A stretch of 64,000 nucleotides of DNA from a virus (lineage: Duplodnaviria > Caudoviricetes), in IMG/VR virus record IMGVR_UViG_3300027971_000001; one strand, given 5' to 3'. Positions 52,052 to 59,754 of the stretch are shown in pieces. The stretch's first letter is position 1; each line of letters begins with the position of its first letter. The position numbers and the translations under genes were made by a program. The notes below the pieces were generated by a model. That model was not told the origin of the DNA, made no database searches, and saw only the letters and a list, made by a program, of their open reading frames with translations.

Positions 52052-52080
52052 GTTCTACCCAATTATTTTACAAATGTCCA
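52052..52080 (-). promoter_or_regulatory. Conserved early promoter, copy 1
   Basis: TGGACA-TTTGTAAAATAATTGGG-TAGAAC-N6-ATG. Confidence 0.75.
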
Positions 52081-52087
52081 GCTTTAT

Positions 52088-52279
52088 TTAAATTATTCCT
52101 AGGGACTCTGCAACATTCCAAGCATGGTCATAAGCTTTATCGCTAGGATTATTGTCGGTAATCTCAACATCCATTTCTCCGTCTCCGTAGTATCTGACAT
52201 ATGCATTATGCACTCGTCCTTCATGTTCAAATTGAAACTGCTTTGATTCTTTTACTGGTTCATCAAATTTATTTTTCAT
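52088..52279 (-). CDS. Hypothetical protein
   Basis: 63 aa, leaderless from promoter copy 2; shares the MKNK start with the 52045 ORF. Confidence 0.6.
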   Translation of the reverse strand: MKNKFDEPVKESKQFQFEHEGRVHNAYVRYYGDGEMDVEITDNNPSDKAYDHAWNVAESLGII

Positions 52280-52285
52280 AAAATT

Positions 52286-52314
52286 GTTCTATCGAATTAT
52301 TTCACAAATGTCAA
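52286..52314 (-). promoter_or_regulatory. Conserved early promoter, copy 2
   Basis: TTGACA-TTTGTGAAATAATTCGA-TAGAAC-N6-ATG. Confidence 0.8.
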
Positions 52315-52315
52315 T

Positions 52316-52606
52316 TCAATTCTTTTTAAAAGGATGTTTGGTATCGACAACCATATTATTCTTTGGATTATTCCTTATCTCTTTTTCACTTTGCCTATCT
52401 GGTGCTCCTATAAGATAACCCAATGCTCCACCGCCCACCATGGTAACTGCCCACATTCCTCCACCACCTCCGCACACGCTACCCACCACCATGCCCACCA
52501 CCACATCGTTCAATGCTTCACCATCCCAACTGAACAACTCCGTATCTGCCCTTAATGGTAAAGATATGGCAATTGTTGAAAAGATTATATATTTTAAGTA
52601 TCTCAT
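52316..52606 (-). CDS. Glycine-zipper membrane protein
   Basis: Signal-like N-terminus; VGMVVGSVCGG...VGGGALGYLIG. Confidence 0.55.
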   Translation of the reverse strand: MRYLKYIIFSTIAISLPLRADTELFSWDGEALNDVVVGMVVGSVCGGGGGMWAVTMVGGGALGYLIGAPDRQSEKEIRNNPKNNMVVDTKHPFKKN

Positions 52607-53094
52607 GGAATCTTGATGGGTTTGCCACAGATGGGGTCAAAGATAACTTCTCCGCTATCCATGTTCATGCTGGATGGGTCAAAGGTGAAACGGCTGTAAG
52701 GAGACTGAACCATCTTGCCCTTTTTGATTCCCAGCTTGGGTATGGTTTTATAATCCATGCCACTTGATGTATTCATGCTTGCCATCTGTTGTTGATACGC
52801 CATCTGCTGTTGCATCATTTGCTGATGATATGCCATTTGCTGTTGTTGCATCTTTGTATCCACCACCTGACCTTGTTGAGATTGGGCAGTTCCATATGCT
52901 CCACCTGCCATCGCTCCCAACAATCCTCCGACCAGCTTGGCATCGCTTCCTTTGCTGATCATGGGGGCAATCAATGCTCCCAACAATCCTCCCACCACCA
53001 TATCGGTAGGAGTTCCGCTTCCGCTTTGAATGTTAATCATTCCTTGGGCTTGAATTGAGGCGGGCAAAAGCAAACATAGTAGTAGTTTTTTCAT
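52603..53094 (-). CDS. Secreted glycine-zipper protein with a Gln/Met-rich linker
   Basis: Signal peptide; GGLLGALI...GGLLGAMAGGAYG; C-terminal VQSPY...DPICGKPIKIP. Confidence 0.7.
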   Translation of the reverse strand: MKKLLLCLLLPASIQAQGMINIQSGSGTPTDMVVGGLLGALIAPMISKGSDAKLVGGLLGAMAGGAYGTAQSQQGQVVDTKMQQQQMAYHQQMMQQQMAYQQQMASMNTSSGMDYKTIPKLGIKKGKMVQSPYSRFTFDPSSMNMDSGEVIFDPICGKPIKIP

Positions 53095-53100
53095 GCTTCC

Positions 53101-53129
53101 TTTCTATGGAATTATTTCACAAATGTCAA
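53101..53129 (-). promoter_or_regulatory. Conserved early promoter, copy 3
   Basis: TTGACA-TTTGTGAAATAATTCCA-TAGAAA-N6-ATG. Confidence 0.8.
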
Positions 53130-53159
53130 GAAAAAATATGGCATATCCCTTTTGGGCTA

Positions 53160-53855
53160 TTATGCATTCTCCCTACACATACGAGAGTCTTCATCTGCCT
53201 CATCATTTTCTCTTTTATCCTCTTCATATGTATTGATACCCAATTCTTCACAAAGTTCATCGGGAACATCTTTGTGTTCGGTATAACATTCATCATCAAC
53301 TTTACCATTTGGATAAAAATGGTAAGTGCCAAAGAATCCATATCCCTCATCCATATAAGTGAGCCGAACAATCTTATTCAGTTTTACTGCCAATTCCTGT
53401 AATGCTGGTTCGGGTGGACTCCACGCTGTTTGGAAAAACAACTGCTCGTTATCATCTTTGTCAACGCCACCCCAGCGTGTTTCATAAGTGTTCCATTTGG
53501 TTCCCCAGTATTTCACACTCCAGTCATACCATCCAGTCACACCATAAAGCTTCTTGCACTTGTCTGATAATTTCTTTTGTTTAATATCAATTTTCTTTCG
53601 TTCCTGTGCTGTGCGTTTCGTCATAAGAAAACCCACATCACTAAACTTTGATGTTTCCAAAATATATTTTGGCATAGGAACAATCTTGTTCAAATCCAAA
53701 AAGATGCTGTTTTGCAAATCCTCTTCATTCTCGGTTATCATCACCAATCCGTCCTTCTCACTTGTTGTGTTTTCAGTGGAAAGGAAAGGACGCAATAATC
53801 CTTGGATATGTTTTTCGCCCACGATGGTTAGTAGATTTGTTGTATGATTTGGCAT
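53160..53855 (-). CDS. YubB/DUF1281-like ferredoxin-fold protein
   Basis: MPNH, WYDW...WGTKWN, FQTAWSPP. Confidence 0.75.
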   Translation of the reverse strand: MPNHTTNLLTIVGEKHIQGLLRPFLSTENTTSEKDGLVMITENEEDLQNSIFLDLNKIVPMPKYILETSKFSDVGFLMTKRTAQERKKIDIKQKKLSDKCKKLYGVTGWYDWSVKYWGTKWNTYETRWGGVDKDDNEQLFFQTAWSPPEPALQELAVKLNKIVRLTYMDEGYGFFGTYHFYPNGKVDDECYTEHKDVPDELCEELGINTYEEDKRENDEADEDSRMCRENA

Positions 53856-53861
53856 AGATTT

Positions 53862-53890
53862 GTCCTAGAGAATTATTATCAAAATGTCAA
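53862..53890 (-). promoter_or_regulatory. Conserved early promoter, copy 4
   Basis: TTGACA-TTTTGATAATAATTCTC-TAGGAC-N6-ATG. Confidence 0.8.
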
Positions 53891-53893
53891 GCA

Positions 53894-54259
53894 TCATTTT
53901 ATAAATGTTTTTAGGAAAGTATAATCATCATCCCACTTCATTCGATATTCAGTGAATCCTTCATCATTTTCAGGAACCAACCACTCCCGCAAATCCTTCA
54001 CCACTTCATCATCAATTTTTGTTTTGAGCGGATAACATGTATCTGATTCTTTACTATCAACCCAATCGTTGCTATATAATTTTCCTTCGCCCAGAATCTC
54101 CCAGATATCATTATCCCCTTCCAGGTCACCTTTGCATAAACTTTCTTGATAATATTCTGATACTATATGGTCACCATTATGATGAGCACATGCCACTCCA
54201 CCATGTTCTGTGACAATGACACAATCCGTTTCCCCGCAATCAAACAACACATATTTCAT
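53894..54259 (-). CDS. Hypothetical acidic protein
   Basis: 121-aa ORF in the early run. Confidence 0.55.
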   Translation of the reverse strand: MKYVLFDCGETDCVIVTEHGGVACAHHNGDHIVSEYYQESLCKGDLEGDNDIWEILGEGKLYSNDWVDSKESDTCYPLKTKIDDEVVKDLREWLVPENDEGFTEYRMKWDDDYTFLKTFIK

Positions 54260-54319
54260 TTTATATTATATGAAATGGGGGTTAGTAACTTCCCCCCATC
54301 TCGTGTCGTGCCTCCGAGG

Positions 54320-54784
54320 TTAAACTTTAGTGAAGGTCAATGCCGTGGTCACCTTGCCACGAATCACCCTCTTCGTTCTTCCTTTCAAATCGGACACGAT
54401 CTGTTCGCAATCCAATTTGAAGTTTTTGACCTTGCTTTGGTCTTCGTCCATAGCCCGTCCAATAGCCCGTGTAAGAGCTTTGGGACTGACTTCTTGGGCG
54501 AGCTGATACACGATGCTAGCCCAAGGGATTTCCGCCACCACCATCTGTTCCTGCGGATTTCCTTTGCGAATCCCACCCTGCACACGCAGGGTAAAATCAA
54601 TGTTATAGTTTCCTGCTGGCACCAAATCATTGATATGGTCACTCAACTCCCTTGTGCTACCTTTCACAAGAGCCAGCAGTTCCACGCTGGACAGGTTTTC
54701 GTTGTTGCCTTCCCCACCATAGGGAATGTTGGGCATTTGCGGGGGAACTTCAATTCCGCCCACATTCTCGATTGCTTTTGCCAC
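54320..54784 (-). CDS. Hypothetical protein
   Basis: 154 aa, GTG start; GC-richer codons; hairpin at 54275-54299 downstream. Confidence 0.65.
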   Translation of the reverse strand: MAKAIENVGGIEVPPQMPNIPYGGEGNNENLSSVELLALVKGSTRELSDHINDLVPAGNYNIDFTLRVQGGIRKGNPQEQMVVAEIPWASIVYQLAQEVSPKALTRAIGRAMDEDQSKVKNFKLDCEQIVSDLKGRTKRVIRGKVTTALTFTKV

Positions 54785-54873
54785 TTGCCACCTACTTTCT
54801 GATCTCTGCTTTGGTCTGCTTGGGTTTGGCTATCGCCTCTGCCCTTTGCTTTCCTTTGCTTTGATCTTGCTCA

Positions 54874-54902
54874 ACGCTACTAAATTATTTCCAAAATGTC
54901 AA
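54874..54902 (-). promoter_or_regulatory. Conserved early promoter, copy 5
   Basis: TTGACA-TTTTGGAAATAATTTAG-TAGCGT, followed by a long purine-rich leader. Confidence 0.75.
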
Positions 54903-55255
54903 ACCTTTTTTTCCAATTCTTTTTCCAGCTTGGTTGGAGGTTGACCCATCCATCTTTCGGGTTTGATATGGCAGAACCAATCTTGGATAGTTGGTATGCG
55001 TCCCATATCTTCCAGCACATGCTGTTCGCCAATGAATCGGACTGGCACTTTGCGACCATCGCTATTGGTAATTGTCGTGCCAAAGATTCTTTCGCAAGTG
55101 AAGATTCCTTCGGCATGATGACGCAGGGCACGATGACGAAAATCCGCATACATCTTTTTGCTTTCATCAAACCAATCATGGATGGCTTGATAATCTTCGG
55201 GTTTGCCCCCGTATTTTCTTACACTACTTACTGAATGATGATAAGGATGAGCCAT
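54899..55255 (-). CDS. DUF6915-like His-rich protein
   Basis: MAHPYHHS.SS..KYGG..EDY..IHDWFD.SK...RHRALRHH.EGIF. Confidence 0.7.
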   Translation of the reverse strand: MAHPYHHSVSSVRKYGGKPEDYQAIHDWFDESKKMYADFRHRALRHHAEGIFTCERIFGTTITNSDGRKVPVRFIGEQHVLEDMGRIPTIQDWFCHIKPERWMGQPPTKLEKELEKKV

Positions 55256-55266
55256 TGTATTCTCCT

Positions 55267-55656
55267 TTATAGTTCGTGTTCGCTATATACAGTTTCTTGA
55301 ATATAGTTGTTATGTTCCATTTTGATGGTGCGTTCAGCCACATCAAATATGATTTCACCATATCCACCTTCATTGTTGTAGAAACCACTTTCTTCATCTT
55401 CAATCTTTTCCCAAGTGAAGGTATCAAGATAACTGCGTAATGTTTCTTTCTCATTTAATTGTTCATCCAACAATTTATGTAGCTTATCAGGTATGGTGGT
55501 CATATCATCAGTCTGACCACTATCTCCGCTACCACTATAATGAACCTTCAACACTTGGATTCCTAATGCTTTAAGGAAATCAAAAAGCGTCTTACGTTCT
55601 GCGGATTCCTGCGGTTCGGGTAACTCGACTGTTGCAACTTGTTTTTTCTTTCTCAT
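55267..55656 (-). CDS. DUF6878-like protein
   Basis: YSGSGDSG...NNEGGYG; start refined to ATG 55656 (TTGCTA-17-TACAAA-N6-ATG). Confidence 0.65.
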   Translation of the reverse strand: MRKKKQVATVELPEPQESAERKTLFDFLKALGIQVLKVHYSGSGDSGQTDDMTTIPDKLHKLLDEQLNEKETLRSYLDTFTWEKIEDEESGFYNNEGGYGEIIFDVAERTIKMEHNNYIQETVYSEHEL

Positions 55657-55721
55657 GTTTCCTTTGTATTGGATTTTTTTCAAAATAGCAAGATTTATTT
55701 ACAAAATCTTTTTCGACCAGG

Positions 55722-55744
55722 ATAGATTATTTGCAAAATGTCAA
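55722..55744 (-). promoter_or_regulatory. Conserved early promoter, copy 6 (poor -10)
   Basis: TTGACATTTTGCAAATAATC. Confidence 0.55.
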
Positions 55745-55825
55745 GCATATAATAAAAAGTTTTCATCAACTTTTTTTCTTTACATTTTTTTAAAAATATG
55801 TTATTTGGCAAATAAATAATCTTAT

Positions 55826-55930
55826 ATGCTAATGAGTATTATTGGATATGCATTGGCCGGTTACTTGGCCAGTGCTTTTGTTAGTGTGGCAATTGGTGTG
55901 ATCATGAATCGTAGTGAACATGAAAAATGA
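55826..55930 (+). CDS. 34-aa membrane peptide (not in ORF track)
   Basis: MLMSIIGYALAGYLASAFVSVAIGVIM...; TAAATA 7 nt upstream. Confidence 0.5.
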   Translation: MLMSIIGYALAGYLASAFVSVAIGVIMNRSEHEK

Positions 55931-56022
55931 TTGATTTGGTTTTTGCTATTACCATTTTCACATTAATTGTCTTGTTGTTTGCAAAATATTGATATCCTTC
56001 TCGGCCATGATAGAGTGGGTTC

Positions 56023-56202
56023 ATGATCAACAATCCGTGGGACTTGCCCGAACATGATGAATTGCCAGAGAATAAGTTTTATCTGGGCAGTATGAATGTG
56101 GACAAAGGCGACAAAGATGATGAAGTGACACCAGAAGAAATGGAAAAGATTAGCAAGTTTCTGGAAAGTATAAATCCATTAATAAATCCTCCCAATGATT
56201 AA
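56023..56202 (+). CDS. 59-aa acidic peptide (not in ORF track)
   Basis: MINNPWDLPEHDELP...; overlaps the next ORF. Confidence 0.45.
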   Translation: MINNPWDLPEHDELPENKFYLGSMNVDKGDKDDEVTPEEMEKISKFLESINPLINPPND

Positions 56203-56314
56203 TACAATAATCTCTGCAGTTCTGGGAATTATATTCAGTATTATTGTTCCAGTATCAGTATTGTTGTTTGGAATATTTTTTGTTTATGAAGTGTTCATAC
56301 GTTTTAGAAAATAA
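56195..56314 (+). CDS. 39-aa membrane peptide (not in ORF track)
   Basis: MINTIISAVLGIIFSIIVPVSVLLFGIFFVYEVFIRFRK. Confidence 0.45.
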   Translation: MINTIISAVLGIIFSIIVPVSVLLFGIFFVYEVFIRFRK

Positions 56315-56414
56315 TATACAAACACATGCATCAAGGGCAAACTTTTCTAATAGACCGGCAAGACGAATTTTTGGTCAGACCGCAAATTATTTTGATACTA
56401 TCCTTGGTAAGAAG

Positions 56415-56666
56415 TTAATAACTGAAGCACAACTCGTTGCTGATCCAAGGATGCTTTGTGATGATGTAGTTCATTCGGTTAACGATATGATAACCTGCAC
56501 CGATTCTCAACTTGCCATCACAATCCAGTAGTGTCCATATGTGGTTATGTTTTGTTTCTATAATCCTGTTCAGATCATCTCCATATGTTTCAAAAAGAAT
56601 ACTGCCATCATCCCGTGTTAAGGGTTGATAATGCTTTTCGAATGTGCTGTATCTACCCGCCCTCAT
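56415..56666 (-). CDS. Hypothetical protein
   Basis: FETYG, HIWTLLD, GYHIVNR; ATGA coupling. Confidence 0.6.
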   Translation of the reverse strand: MRAGRYSTFEKHYQPLTRDDGSILFETYGDDLNRIIETKHNHIWTLLDCDGKLRIGAGYHIVNRMNYIITKHPWISNELCFSY

Positions 56667-56902
56667 GAAGTGAACTCCGCATCTTCACACTGATCAACAT
56701 ATTGTTTGTTTAATGCCCAGTTTGATATGAACCGAAGACCACAACTATCCTCAAAAGTCTTCTTTAATTTTGAGATATGAAGGACGCTGTACTCACTTGA
56801 TTGAGCTTCTCTTCGTTGTTCCTCTGATTCAATCAGATAGATTTTGTGACATCCATCATAAGCAAAATGCTTTGCAGATATTTCTATATTATTGATCTTC
56901 AT
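56663..56902 (-). CDS. Hypothetical protein
   Basis: FAYDGCHKIYL...SCGLRFI. Confidence 0.6.
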   Translation of the reverse strand: MKINNIEISAKHFAYDGCHKIYLIESEEQRREAQSSEYSVLHISKLKKTFEDSCGLRFISNWALNKQYVDQCEDAEFTS

Positions 56903-56904
56903 GT

Positions 56905-57183
56905 TTAATTAACCCCCACGCCATAATAGTAATCGCTGGTCTTATCTCTTGCTATTTTAAGACGCTGGCGAACCACATGGGCATTGAGTTCCAGTCCACT
57001 GCTTTCAATAAGCTCATCCAACACGCAACTGCTGATGAGTTTCTTGGCGGTGGTATGTGCTTCTTTATCCACATACTGATTGGGTTCTACGATATCCATC
57101 ACAGCTTGCTCAAGGATTGCTTTAAGCAACAGCCCTGCTGGATCATCGACTACTCTTACTTGATTTGCTTGCATCATTTTCAT
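56905..57183 (-). CDS. Hypothetical protein
   Basis: LLKAILEQAVMD; downstream of promoter copy 7. Confidence 0.6.
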   Translation of the reverse strand: MKMMQANQVRVVDDPAGLLLKAILEQAVMDIVEPNQYVDKEAHTTAKKLISSCVLDELIESSGLELNAHVVRQRLKIARDKTSDYYYGVGVN

Positions 57184-57191
57184 ATGCGAGC

Positions 57192-57220
57192 AGGTTGCCG
57201 AATTATTTGCAAAATGTCAA
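57192..57220 (-). promoter_or_regulatory. Conserved early promoter, copy 7
   Basis: TTGACA-TTTTGCAAATAATTCGG-CAACCT-N8-ATG. Confidence 0.7.
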
Positions 57221-57239
57221 GATTATATTTTATAAAAAT

Positions 57240-57355
57240 AGTTCCTTCTCCTGCCAGACATTGTCTGACTCTGTTTCGGGAAACAAACACAACCCTCAAC
57301 ATGAACAACACATTCTGAGCCAACCACCACAGGTGATTGAACAGGAGAAAGAACT
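57240..57355 (-). ncRNA. Candidate 116-nt structured RNA (element B)
   Basis: 14-bp closing stem with one G-U, internal hairpins, own promoter, AUUUUU tail. Confidence 0.65.
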
Positions 57356-57394
57356 AAACTGATGTTAAAGTATGGCTAAAAGAAATCAAGTGGC

Positions 57395-57565
57395 TCAAAC
57401 CAAATCTGTCAGCTTTTCCAACAAAGTATCTGATGCACTATCTGCTTCAATGTCGAATGTATCAAGCAATTCCCGAAACACAATAGAACTCAAACGACTA
57501 TCATCCAGAACCAAATAACCAATGTGGATCAACAAATCTTTTTCTTTGTCTGTGAAATTTTCCAC
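57395..57565 (-). CDS. 56-aa acidic helical protein (not in ORF track)
   Basis: GTG start after AAGGA; FTDKEKDLLIHIG...ELLDTFD...LLEKLTDLV. Confidence 0.5.
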   Translation of the reverse strand: MENFTDKEKDLLIHIGYLVLDDSRLSSIVFRELLDTFDIEADSASDTLLEKLTDLV

Positions 57566-57718
57566 ATAAATAGTTATCCTTTTTCAAATCATTTTTTGAT
57601 TTTCTTAGTTCGGATAATCTTAAAAACAGCTTTGGGCTTCGGTTTAAAACGACAACGATTACATGGTCTTGGCATGGTACCTTTGTAACATCTGGGCACC
57701 AAGCGTCAACAGATTTCT

Positions 57719-57949
57719 TCAGAGCTCTAGAAACGAAATTTCGAAACCAAATCCCAGAATGCGTATGGTGAAAACTTTCCCATACTCATAAGTGTGATAT
57801 GTGATTGTGGTGCGCAGATCTAGATCCAGCCCGTAACTGCAGCCATCGTATTCTCCGTAATAGCGGCGTAACAAAATTTCAAACGGGTGAAACCATTTTG
57901 TCATGCGGCAGTAATTATTTTTTTTCATCCGGTTTCTCCCAGGGAACAA
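57719..57949 (-). CDS. Hypothetical protein
   Basis: C-terminal FTIRILGFGFEI. Confidence 0.4.
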   Translation of the reverse strand: MFPGRNRMKKNNYCRMTKWFHPFEILLRRYYGEYDGCSYGLDLDLRTTITYHTYEYGKVFTIRILGFGFEISFLEL

Positions 57950-58193
57950 TGTCTTTGTTTTTCAAATTCAGGTAAACATACTCAGGATTCAGGACCGGAT
58001 TACCATGTGGATCTGTGTATGTACGGTGTATCAAATCGTATTTGTATCCGTGGTCCGTGAGATAATCAAACACGTCTTGATTATATTTAAAACTATTCTT
58101 TTTTGTTTTTACTTCCTCGAAGTCTTCGTGTCCCCAGAATTTGGTGAAATATGTTTTGTAGATGCTGTCTACAATATCACCAAACTCGTCCAT
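57915..58193 (-). CDS. Hypothetical protein
   Basis: 92 aa; coupled to the upstream lipoprotein gene. Confidence 0.5.
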   Translation of the reverse strand: MDEFGDIVDSIYKTYFTKFWGHEDFEEVKTKKNSFKYNQDVFDYLTDHGYKYDLIHRTYTDPHGNPVLNPEYVYLNLKNKDIVPWEKPDEKK

Positions 58194-58666
58194 TATTTTA
58201 CGTAACTGGAGGTGGCGCTCACGCAGCCATCTGCAATCGCGTTAAGAACTTTGAGGGCCAGTGCTGGATCATTTCCAATTTGCCCGTAAAGATTGCGATA
58301 CACGTCGCTAAGACTGGCAGCGAAGTTTGTCCAATGTGTTTTCTCCGGGAGAAAATTAGCCACAGCTTCATCCAGGTCGTCTGCAGATGGTACAGATCCA
58401 CTGCTCAAACTACGAACCACATTAGCAACATCATGAATCATCTTGGCTTTGGTAATGCGATCTTCGGGGCTGACAGCTCCTTCAAGTACTGCTGTGCAGG
58501 CGAGGTTAACTGCAGGTTTCACATATGGAAGTGCCTGCTCGATCTTTTGTTGGACTGTGGTTCCGCCAGTTGATCCGGATCCACCTCCGCCGTTATTGGT
58601 GGCACAGCTGGATAGAAGCATTGCGAAGGGTAAAGGAAGTAACCATTTGAGTAGTTCATTAATCAT
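58193..58666 (-). CDS. Lipoprotein
   Basis: Signal peptide with lipobox LSSC, Gly/Ser linker; TAAATA 5 nt upstream. Confidence 0.75.
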   Translation of the reverse strand: MINELLKWLLPLPFAMLLSSCATNNGGGGSGSTGGTTVQQKIEQALPYVKPAVNLACTAVLEGAVSPEDRITKAKMIHDVANVVRSLSSGSVPSADDLDEAVANFLPEKTHWTNFAASLSDVYRNLYGQIGNDPALALKVLNAIADGCVSATSSYVK

Positions 58667-58927
58667 GAAAGTATTTACCGCCTGTCAGTCCAAAACAACA
58701 ATTCTTGCCAAAATAAAATATATAATCTTTTTTATTTGAATAAATCTTTAAGGGCTTCCATCCAATTGAACCCCACATCCCCTGCATTTTCCATCAACAA
58801 CAATTCCTCTTCACTTGGTGTGTGGTCTTCTCTCATCACCTTGTGTTTGGAATTTCTTTTGTCCACAACCATATGTATCTCACGGGTTATGGAAAAATCA
58901 ATTATTTTAATTATTTTTTATATTTTT

Positions 58928-59314
58928 TTATCGAAACATGCTGTTTCGGCTTCGTTTGCCATCAACCTTGCTGGTATCATAGTCATGACATCTGCTTGGA
59001 TTCAATCCCAGTGCCCGCATTACACTCTTCCATCCGTCTCCATGGCCATCGTCTCCGAAAACCTTATAAGCAACAAGATGTGCCACTTCATGAGGAATGG
59101 TATCATTCATGAAATCCTCAATATTCTCTTTGCATAGCTGTTCATTCAGTTGGATACGCCATTGCTGTAGCCATGCACGACCTGCAGTGCTGCCAATGAT
59201 TACCCATTCCAATTTGGGAAAATCGAACTCGGCACCATACTCCTCGTTCAGCTCTTCCAGAACCTGCCACACCCGATGAGTGGCTCGTTCTTTCATGGCT
59301 GTAACATCAAGCAT
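58928..59314 (-). CDS. SprT-like zinc metalloprotease
   Basis: GSTAGRA, LNEQL, TIPHEVAHL (HExxH), GHGDGWK.VM. Confidence 0.9.
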   Translation of the reverse strand: MLDVTAMKERATHRVWQVLEELNEEYGAEFDFPKLEWVIIGSTAGRAWLQQWRIQLNEQLCKENIEDFMNDTIPHEVAHLVAYKVFGDDGHGDGWKSVMRALGLNPSRCHDYDTSKVDGKRSRNSMFR

Positions 59315-59495
59315 CTGGCTTGTTTCCCCATTCTGGATTCCAGTCCGATTGAACCTGCTTGGTCTTTTCTTCCATCACCATCATTTTGTATCGGCATGTG
59401 GCTTCCACCAAGAATATCTCAATGGCTTGCATGGTTTCGCTATCCACATCTGATAATATTTCCTTCTCTAGTTTTTTGCTTAATCTGTTGTTCAT
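59307..59495 (-). CDS. Hypothetical protein
   Basis: Start refined to ATG 59495, 6 nt after the -10 of promoter copy 8. Confidence 0.55.
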   Translation of the reverse strand: MNNRLSKKLEKEILSDVDSETMQAIEIFLVEATCRYKMMVMEEKTKQVQSDWNPEWGNKPDA

Positions 59496-59501
59496 GTTGC
59501 T

Positions 59502-59530
59502 AGCTTGGTCAATTATTTCACAAATGTCAA
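59502..59530 (-). promoter_or_regulatory. Conserved early promoter, copy 8
   Basis: TTGACA-TTTGTGAAATAATTGAC-CAAGCT-N6-ATG. Confidence 0.75.
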
Positions 59531-59540
59531 TATTAAAAAT

Positions 59541-59754
59541 AGTTCTTCGACCCTCTACGCTCATGATTTCGTAAAGGAATATCCTGCTCCTCTTTCGCCT
59601 CTGACTCTGGGCGTTGGCAGGTTCATCCTCTTATGGGAGCTAGTCAGACTCGCCAAGAGAAGTGTTGGCGTTCCGTTATACATAACCAATGTCTCCATTG
59701 GAAACTTTCCAGAACTGCAACCTTTCGGTCAACCTTCTCCGATATCGAAGAACT
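59541..59754 (-). ncRNA. Candidate 214-nt multi-domain structured RNA (element A)
   Basis: Perfect 10-12-bp closing stem, GNRA-capped hairpins, possible pseudoknots, own promoter, AUUUUU tail. Confidence 0.75.

Follow-up and report, generated by a model that had tools for sequence, protein, structure and literature searches.

Comparative sequence evidence for a new family of small structured RNAs in freshwater T4-like phages

Element B, located in the early region of a phage genome, appears on comparative evidence to be a small non-coding RNA gene with its own promoter and terminator, whose fold is kept by compensating mutations. The RNA is 116 nt long and is encoded on the minus strand of the stretch of DNA analysed (64,000 nucleotides, hereafter the window), from position 57355, the A of AGUUC taken as +1, to position 57240, the last base of its closing helix. 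These limits draw on the fold z score, on covariance models and on 13 homologues. Judged by sequence comparison, Element B would represent a new and well-delimited family of small structured phage RNAs, which has a narrow known distribution and matches no described family.

Element B is carried by an uncultured T4-like phage from freshwater. Genes for a tail sheath, a T4-type large terminase and a class Ia ribonucleotide reductase are present in the window, and the best cultured matches, at ~50% identity, are Pelagibacter phage HTVC008M and T4-like cyanophages. Around Element B, small early genes form a block on the minus strand, and four tRNA genes are clustered 2.4 kb away. Element B comes immediately after the stop codon of an upstream gene for a 56-aa protein, and its downstream neighbour encodes a protein of 92 aa. 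Among the ten neighbouring ORFs, no Pfam or PHROG family was found for the small flanking proteins with the exception of one SprT-like protein. In one lineage (L072, L090 and L113; L090:4697-4770, minus strand) a tRNA-Leu(UAA) gene stands between the 56-aa gene and the Element B promoter. The window holds only the last nine bases of that tRNA (TTTGAGCCA, 57391-57399, minus strand), and a TGA inside this remnant (57397-57395) serves as the present stop codon of the 56-aa gene. Since a remnant is found in the window and the whole gene in relatives, a tRNA gene was lost or gained exactly at that spot.

The 13 distinct homologues come from more than 20 viral and metagenome contigs and belong to one clade of freshwater T4-like phages, within which they form two subgroups. 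Scanning viral contigs for the end motifs returned 66 loci, of which four were true, near-identical copies and 62 were chance matches. Using the 92-aa downstream protein as a lead gave five further, more diverged loci with Element B at the same place, and further homologues were obtained from one metagenome scan and one promoter-based scan. Measured from P1 to P1 (the closing helix), the homologues are 109-122 nt long. The same two small early genes flank the element in 12 of the 13, the downstream gene being different in one, and all five viral records that were searched over their whole length contain a single copy each. A blastn search of GenBank phages with 801 nt gave no match, so that no cultured relative with Element B was seen at the DNA level. 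In bacterial genomes (one per species) the motif scan yielded two short chance matches only, both rejected by the covariance model. As far as these searches reach, Element B appears to be confined to one phage clade. A 136-nt look-alike in another phage (L010, L027, L042 and L053) has an 8-nt start and an 11-nt end as in Element B and folds at -38.7 kcal/mol. It was judged a chance resemblance, having no promoter, coding-like flanks and no match to covariance model R1.

A reading of the DNA sequence alone had proposed a 116-nt structured RNA here, and the predicted fold is far beyond what chance would give. RNAfold assigns the minus strand (57355-57240) -50 kcal/mol, compared with -29.6 ± 3.6 for dinucleotide shuffles (z = -5.68; none of 200 as good), and the plus strand reaches only -33.9 kcal/mol. 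The RNA begins with AGUUCUUUCUCCUG and ends with CAGGAGAAGGAACU. RNAalifold and pair counts agree on a closing helix P1 of 15-16 bp around a tight four-way junction, P1-P4. The 14-bp terminal stem of the sequence-only reading is present within P1 with its single imperfection, a U-G pair at position 6; it is extended to 15 bp by U15-G and to 16 bp by the base that precedes +1. The 5′ strand of P1 (RNA positions 1-15, AGUUCUUUCUCCUGU; 57341-57355) and its 3′ strand (positions 102-116; 57240-57254) form 15 pairs which are 100% paired in 12-13 sequences. P2 (positions 17-35; 57321-57339) is a hairpin of eight pairs, four of them changed on both sides, with a UGU loop whose sequence varies among homologues and whose length is 3-4 nt. 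The P3 domain (57268-57320) consists of a GCUC/GAGU helix (positions 36-39 with 85-88) that encloses a small hairpin and a G/U-rich segment. P4 (positions 89-101; 57255-57267) is the hairpin CAGAC-AAU-GUCUG, with five pairs, covariation and a conserved AA in its loop. Of the internal pairings suggested earlier, the AAUCACC/GGUGGUU and CAGAC/GUCUG hairpins are conserved and covary in relatives, and GGCUC/GAGUC, offered as an alternative pairing, covaries as well and is in fact P3, which encloses the middle hairpins. The proposed CUCAG/UUGAG pairing is broken in relatives and has to be dropped.

Compensatory changes among homologues, which had been named beforehand as the check on the fold, are seen in P1, P2, P3 and P4 and in P3b, a hairpin of the P3 interior described below. 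In a model-based alignment of the homologues, standard pairs occupy 99.5% of 384 P1-P4 cells. Nine pairs are changed on both sides, compared with 4.2 ± 1.2 in shuffles (0 of 500) and 0-3 in controls slid by 1-3 columns, and the number rises to 13 when P3b is included. In P1, U10-A is replaced by C-G in five sequences and U6-G by A-U in one; in P3, relatives have CA/UG and CC/GG in place of UC/GA, and 100% of cells are paired; in P4, A-U becomes U-G in three sequences. The other feature of P1 is its constancy, 11 of its 15 pairs being without any variation. Four G-U pairs are conserved, which bears out the earlier assignment of the strand from a G-U pair; on the opposite strand they would be A-C mismatches. 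The covariance model scores Element B at 140 bits on the minus strand and at 21 bits on the plus strand. Together, the compensatory changes, the G-U pairs and the strand-specific score indicate that the RNA is read from the minus strand and that its fold is under selection.

The same observations bear on the proposal that the conserved unit is DNA, namely the boundary of an inverted-repeat cassette, a protein operator or a small mobile element. What speaks for it is the terminal inverted repeat AGTTCTT...AAGAACT, which Element B has in common with a different element of the window, Element A (59541-59754). We regard a DNA-level element as scarcely credible, given that the four G-U pairs would be mismatched on the other strand, that the strands differ by the above bit scores and by 16 kcal/mol in folding energy, that the element keeps a fixed place between the same flanking genes in 12 of 13 homologues, with one copy per record searched whole, and that no target-site duplication was seen.

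The interior of P3 is where the two subgroups differ. Its G/U-rich motif, GUGUUUG (positions 66-72; 57284-57290, minus strand), shows no change in 12 of the 13 homologues. In the diverged subgroup the motif lies inside the 10-nt loop of P3b, a 5-bp hairpin that covaries (CCCUG/CAGGG, CCCAG/CUGGG, UCCAG/CUGGA). The closer subgroup allows, around the motif, only a GG(G)/CC(C) helix of 2-3 bp or a UGUU/AACA helix, and forcing the P3b of the diverged subgroup onto these sequences turned the alignment inconsistent. The UGUUU/AAACA hairpin of the sequence-only reading holds to this extent: it is present in the closer subgroup and absent outside it, and hence it is not a feature of the family. One natural variant (L120:2997-3117, plus strand, and L121) has GUU inserted within the motif and is also the variant with a different downstream gene.

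The gene is bounded on its 5′ side by a promoter of the form suggested earlier, TTGATT-16-TAACAT-N6. The -35 hexamer TTGATT is at 57389-57384 and the -10 hexamer TAACAT at 57367-57362 (minus strand), 6 nt ahead of +1. Across the 12 aligned homologues TTGATTT is invariant, and the 16-nt spacing between the hexamers and the 6 nt to AGUUC are fixed, while the letters of the spacer diverge. The -10 hexamer occurs as TAACAT, TACTAT, TAATCT and TACCAT, with TAnnnT kept in every homologue. A working sigma-70-type promoter would be expected to keep its hexamers and their spacing in this way while its spacer diverges, and transcription is predicted to start at the first base of P1. The promoter is absent from the list of a simple promoter scan, which misses it because only 8 of 12 consensus positions match; we take it as real because of its conservation. 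The 3′ boundary is the AUUUUU tail proposed earlier (57239-57234), the presumed point of intrinsic termination. All homologues have a U run after P1, with at least four U within 1-2 nt of the 3′ side of the helix, and termination would occur at this run. The claim that no credible ORF occupies the interval also stands up to comparison. Open frames span Element B merely through its shortness, their positions shift between homologues, and neither a reading frame nor a start is conserved among them.

Beyond the tail, and outside the RNA, a copy of the early promoter core (TTGACATTTTGCAAATAATT; 57201-57220, minus strand) begins fourteen bases past AUUUUU and would drive the next gene, which is leaderless. 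In every homologue the early promoter of the next gene is found 4-25 nt beyond P1 and the U run. The core pattern has 10 matches in the window compared with 3.0 ± 1.7 expected, and nine of these are on the minus strand, between 50472 and 59530. The layout TTGACA-N29-ATG recurs in the window and in relatives, with leaderless genes downstream. It is a fixed arrangement at 52061-59530 of the window (minus strand) and in L089, L090, L111 and L120, and the resulting leaderless mRNAs mostly begin AUGAAAA. The -10 hexamers of these early promoters (TAGAAC, CAACCT, CAAGCT) are far from consensus, and a spacer segment, AAATAATT, is conserved.

Such tight packing between two genes raises the question of whether Element B acts mainly in cis, as a terminator or insulator of the upstream early gene that stabilises the 3′ end of its mRNA, in which case the small RNA would be a by-product. 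The position of the element right after the upstream stop codon and the conserved early promoter that follows the U run in every homologue are in keeping with such a role. We consider it unlikely, in that a simple hairpin would be enough for it, and yet the 85 nt of the interior have been kept, with their three further helices that covary and their invariant loop bases, along with a dedicated promoter with a fixed +1; moreover, the tRNA-Leu gene parts Element B from the upstream gene in one lineage. A riboswitch, which would need an aptamer in the leader of the gene that it regulates and an alternative expression platform, was rejected: a separate conserved promoter separates Element B from the next gene, and P1 has no alternative pairing partner and itself, at 15 bp, precedes the U run.

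Comparison with known RNA families, the Infernal and Rfam check proposed at the outset, left Element B without a family match. With the 4227 models of Rfam 15 at gathering thresholds, five tRNAs and nothing else pass in the whole window; at E ≤ 10 nothing overlaps Element B in the interval 56800-57800, and at E ≤ 1 four diverged homologous loci gave no match. The Rfam Y RNA models do not match Element B either. A retron msr-msd RNA was considered and rejected; a terminal helix is present, but no reverse-transcriptase domain was found in the ten neighbouring ORFs.

An origin among tRNAs deserves separate treatment in view of the surroundings. Element B could in principle be a degenerate tRNA-derived element or a mimic directed at tRNA-processing or tRNA-targeting enzymes, for example a decoy for an anticodon nuclease. 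The four-way junction and the tRNA-rich early region suit this idea, as do the tRNA-Leu directly upstream in one lineage with its 9-nt remnant in the window, and the sequence GGCUCAG, which occurs both in P3 and at the 5′ end of that tRNA-Leu. The features that define a tRNA are the cloverleaf, its acceptor stem of 7 bp, its anticodon arm and a T arm whose T loop has 7 nt. Element B has a P1 of 15 bp instead of 7, a P4 loop of 3 nt and a P2 loop of 3-4 nt, and there is no D-loop or anticodon-like loop, nor a T-loop, as the sequence-only reading had noted. ARAGORN and the Rfam tRNA model (RF00005), which detect the five real tRNAs of the window, give no score at Element B. Identity as a tRNA or tRNA-like RNA was therefore rejected, and we find a tRNA-derived mimic very improbable.

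The closest parallels in genomic position are the T4 genes rnaC and rnaD (species 1 and species 2), which are likewise genes for small RNAs (119-139 nt and stable in T4) in an early tRNA region. The RNAs of rnaC and rnaD are cut from a tRNA-Arg precursor. These genes adjoin tRNA-Arg in the tRNA array with no annotated promoter between, whereas Element B is served by a promoter and a terminator of its own; rnaC has a tRNA-like T arm and Element B has none. Homology was rejected, since covariance model R2 with filters off gave no match at 2909-3172 of L067 and the folds differ. To our knowledge, the T4 RNAs beside its tRNAs have been left without a known role after fifty years. The prohead RNA (pRNA) of phi29 offers another comparison. 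Its functional domain is ~120 nt and it is transcribed early from its own promoter; like Element B, it is phage-encoded, holds its 5′ and 3′ ends in one helix and has a multi-way junction. It differs in its three-way junction, its two mutually complementary loops and its ring on the portal, whereas Element B has a four-way junction and no complementary loop pair was seen in it. We know of no T4-type packaging motor that uses RNA. GOLLD, ROOL and other large ornate phage RNAs are similarly orphan structured RNAs, often beside tRNA genes; they are several hundred nucleotides long, unlike the 116 nt of Element B, for which Rfam gives no match.

For function, the reading we prefer, with a probability of roughly one in three (about 0.35), is that Element B is a stable trans-acting early RNA whose G/U-rich loop base-pairs, wobble allowed, with C/A-rich host RNA. 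Host RNA polymerase would make the RNA early in infection and stop at P1 and the U run. P1 would then hide both RNA ends from 5′-end-dependent and 3′ exonucleolytic decay, and the RNA would act in trans through its sole long conserved exposed segment, the GUGUUUG loop atop P3, which would pair with a C/A-rich stretch of a host RNA in the manner of GcvB. It is the combination of early synthesis, locked ends and one long exposed segment, each of them inferred, that makes us favor a stable trans-acting RNA. In GcvB, a G/U-rich single strand pairs with C/A-rich mRNA sites. Element B resembles base-pairing sRNAs of this type in its conserved, presumably exposed G/U-rich segment and in its 3′ helix followed by a U run; it differs from them in having no sequence or structural homology or Rfam match and in having its ends locked in one helix. 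As far as we know, base-pairing sRNAs seldom take the form of a compact closed junction, and this counts against the base-pairing reading. The exposure of the loop is also open to objection, in that the motif may be partly paired (UGUU/AACA) in the closer subgroup.

Candidate targets in the phage were looked for in two ways. Complements of GUGUUUG occur 52 times in the window compared with 38 ± 6.6 expected, and 3 of 100 shuffles reach 52, which is no clear enrichment; enrichment of CAAACACAA in the window was marginal at best. Nor was there support for the idea that Element B masks the leaderless early mRNAs at their 5′ ends, AUGAAAAA. In some phages these ends pair better with Element B than with shuffles of it, and they are no better as partners than random genomic 25-mers, which implies that any target would be in the host. 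Two further complementarities were observed. The segment UGUUGUUCAU of Element B (57301-57310, minus strand) is a perfect 10-nt complement of AUGAACAACA (59486-59495, minus strand), with which the leaderless gene behind Element A begins. This match is probably due to chance, being absent from L102, where the Element B segment is the same and the gene start is different. Complementarity to AUGAA is seen in a shorter motif, UUCRU, which 12 of the 13 homologues retain.

It is nearly as likely that the G/U-rich loop binds a protein as that it base-pairs. In its wider form, this alternative makes Element B a decoy, a sponge or a subunit of a ribonucleoprotein, with the G/U-rich tract and/or the base of P1 being recognised by a host or phage protein and the junction merely presenting them; we consider it possible, if somewhat doubtful. 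The 3-nt insertion in the motif of one variant is easier to reconcile with a low-complexity tract that a protein binds than with a precise seed. The sequence of P1 is conserved beyond the needs of pairing, as its 11 invariant pairs indicate, and its first 9 nt are found again in Element A and in the short form of that element, A′, which are otherwise unrelated to Element B, suggesting a shared recognition element. The lack of an RNA target in the phage, among motif complements and leaderless mRNA 5′ ends, points the same way. On the other hand, no candidate protein is linked to the element, the small flanking proteins being without a Pfam or PHROG family, and the common start of P1 could equally come from the initial transcribed sequence, from duplication or from gene conversion. 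A trans-acting, base-pairing RNA is kept as the preferred, tentative reading.

What is most unusual about Element B is the closing-helix module that it has in common with Element A and A′. The nine bases with which P1 begins, AGUUCUUUC, are common to Element B and, in the same phages, to the otherwise unrelated A and A′; in the window, Element A shares with Element B its first seven bases, their complement and the tail only. A′ is 129-130 nt long and lies directly after the tRNA cluster in relatives (L089:6367-6495, L111:5653-5782 and L090:6925-7053, all minus strand). It starts with AGUUCUUUCCGC, in which the first nine to ten bases are as in the Element B of those phages, and ends with their complement, GCGGAAAGAAU. 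Its loop is UAUAUA, there is no U run after its P1, and an early promoter follows immediately downstream. The likeness of A and A′ to Element B extends to the promoter geometry, the first 7-10 nt (AGUUCUU(UC)), the closing helix with the 3′ end, the multi-branched interior and the early promoter copy directly after; Element B has no self-complementary loop, unlike A′. Homology beyond the terminal helix was rejected, R1 giving no match at 59541-59754 of the window and R2 none to A′ in L089, L090 and L111 nor to A in L001. The lineages of L109 and L102 have Element B and neither A nor A′ after the tRNA cluster.

For two folds set in one terminal helix and one promoter geometry, three explanations can be offered: a recognition element common to both, an initial transcribed sequence that is favoured, or a duplication long ago. 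A bolder proposal, which we think unlikely to be right as a whole, is that Element B and A/A′ are different 'payload' folds in one shared shell, and that Element B founds a class of early riboregulators which reprogram the host through the G/U-rich loop. The shell would consist of the promoter, the +1 sequence AGUUCUUUC, the complementary 3′ strand and the gene end, and it would be read by a common factor or confer extreme stability.

Few phage-encoded small RNAs are known to us, and most of them are uncharacterised. Element B, which comes from abundant uncultured lake phages, adds a compact RNA that is well supported by sequence comparison and clearly delimited as a gene, and it is small enough for synthesis, probing and structure solution. 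The common start and closing helix of two unrelated folds hint at a module for recognition or stability in the early RNAs of these phages.
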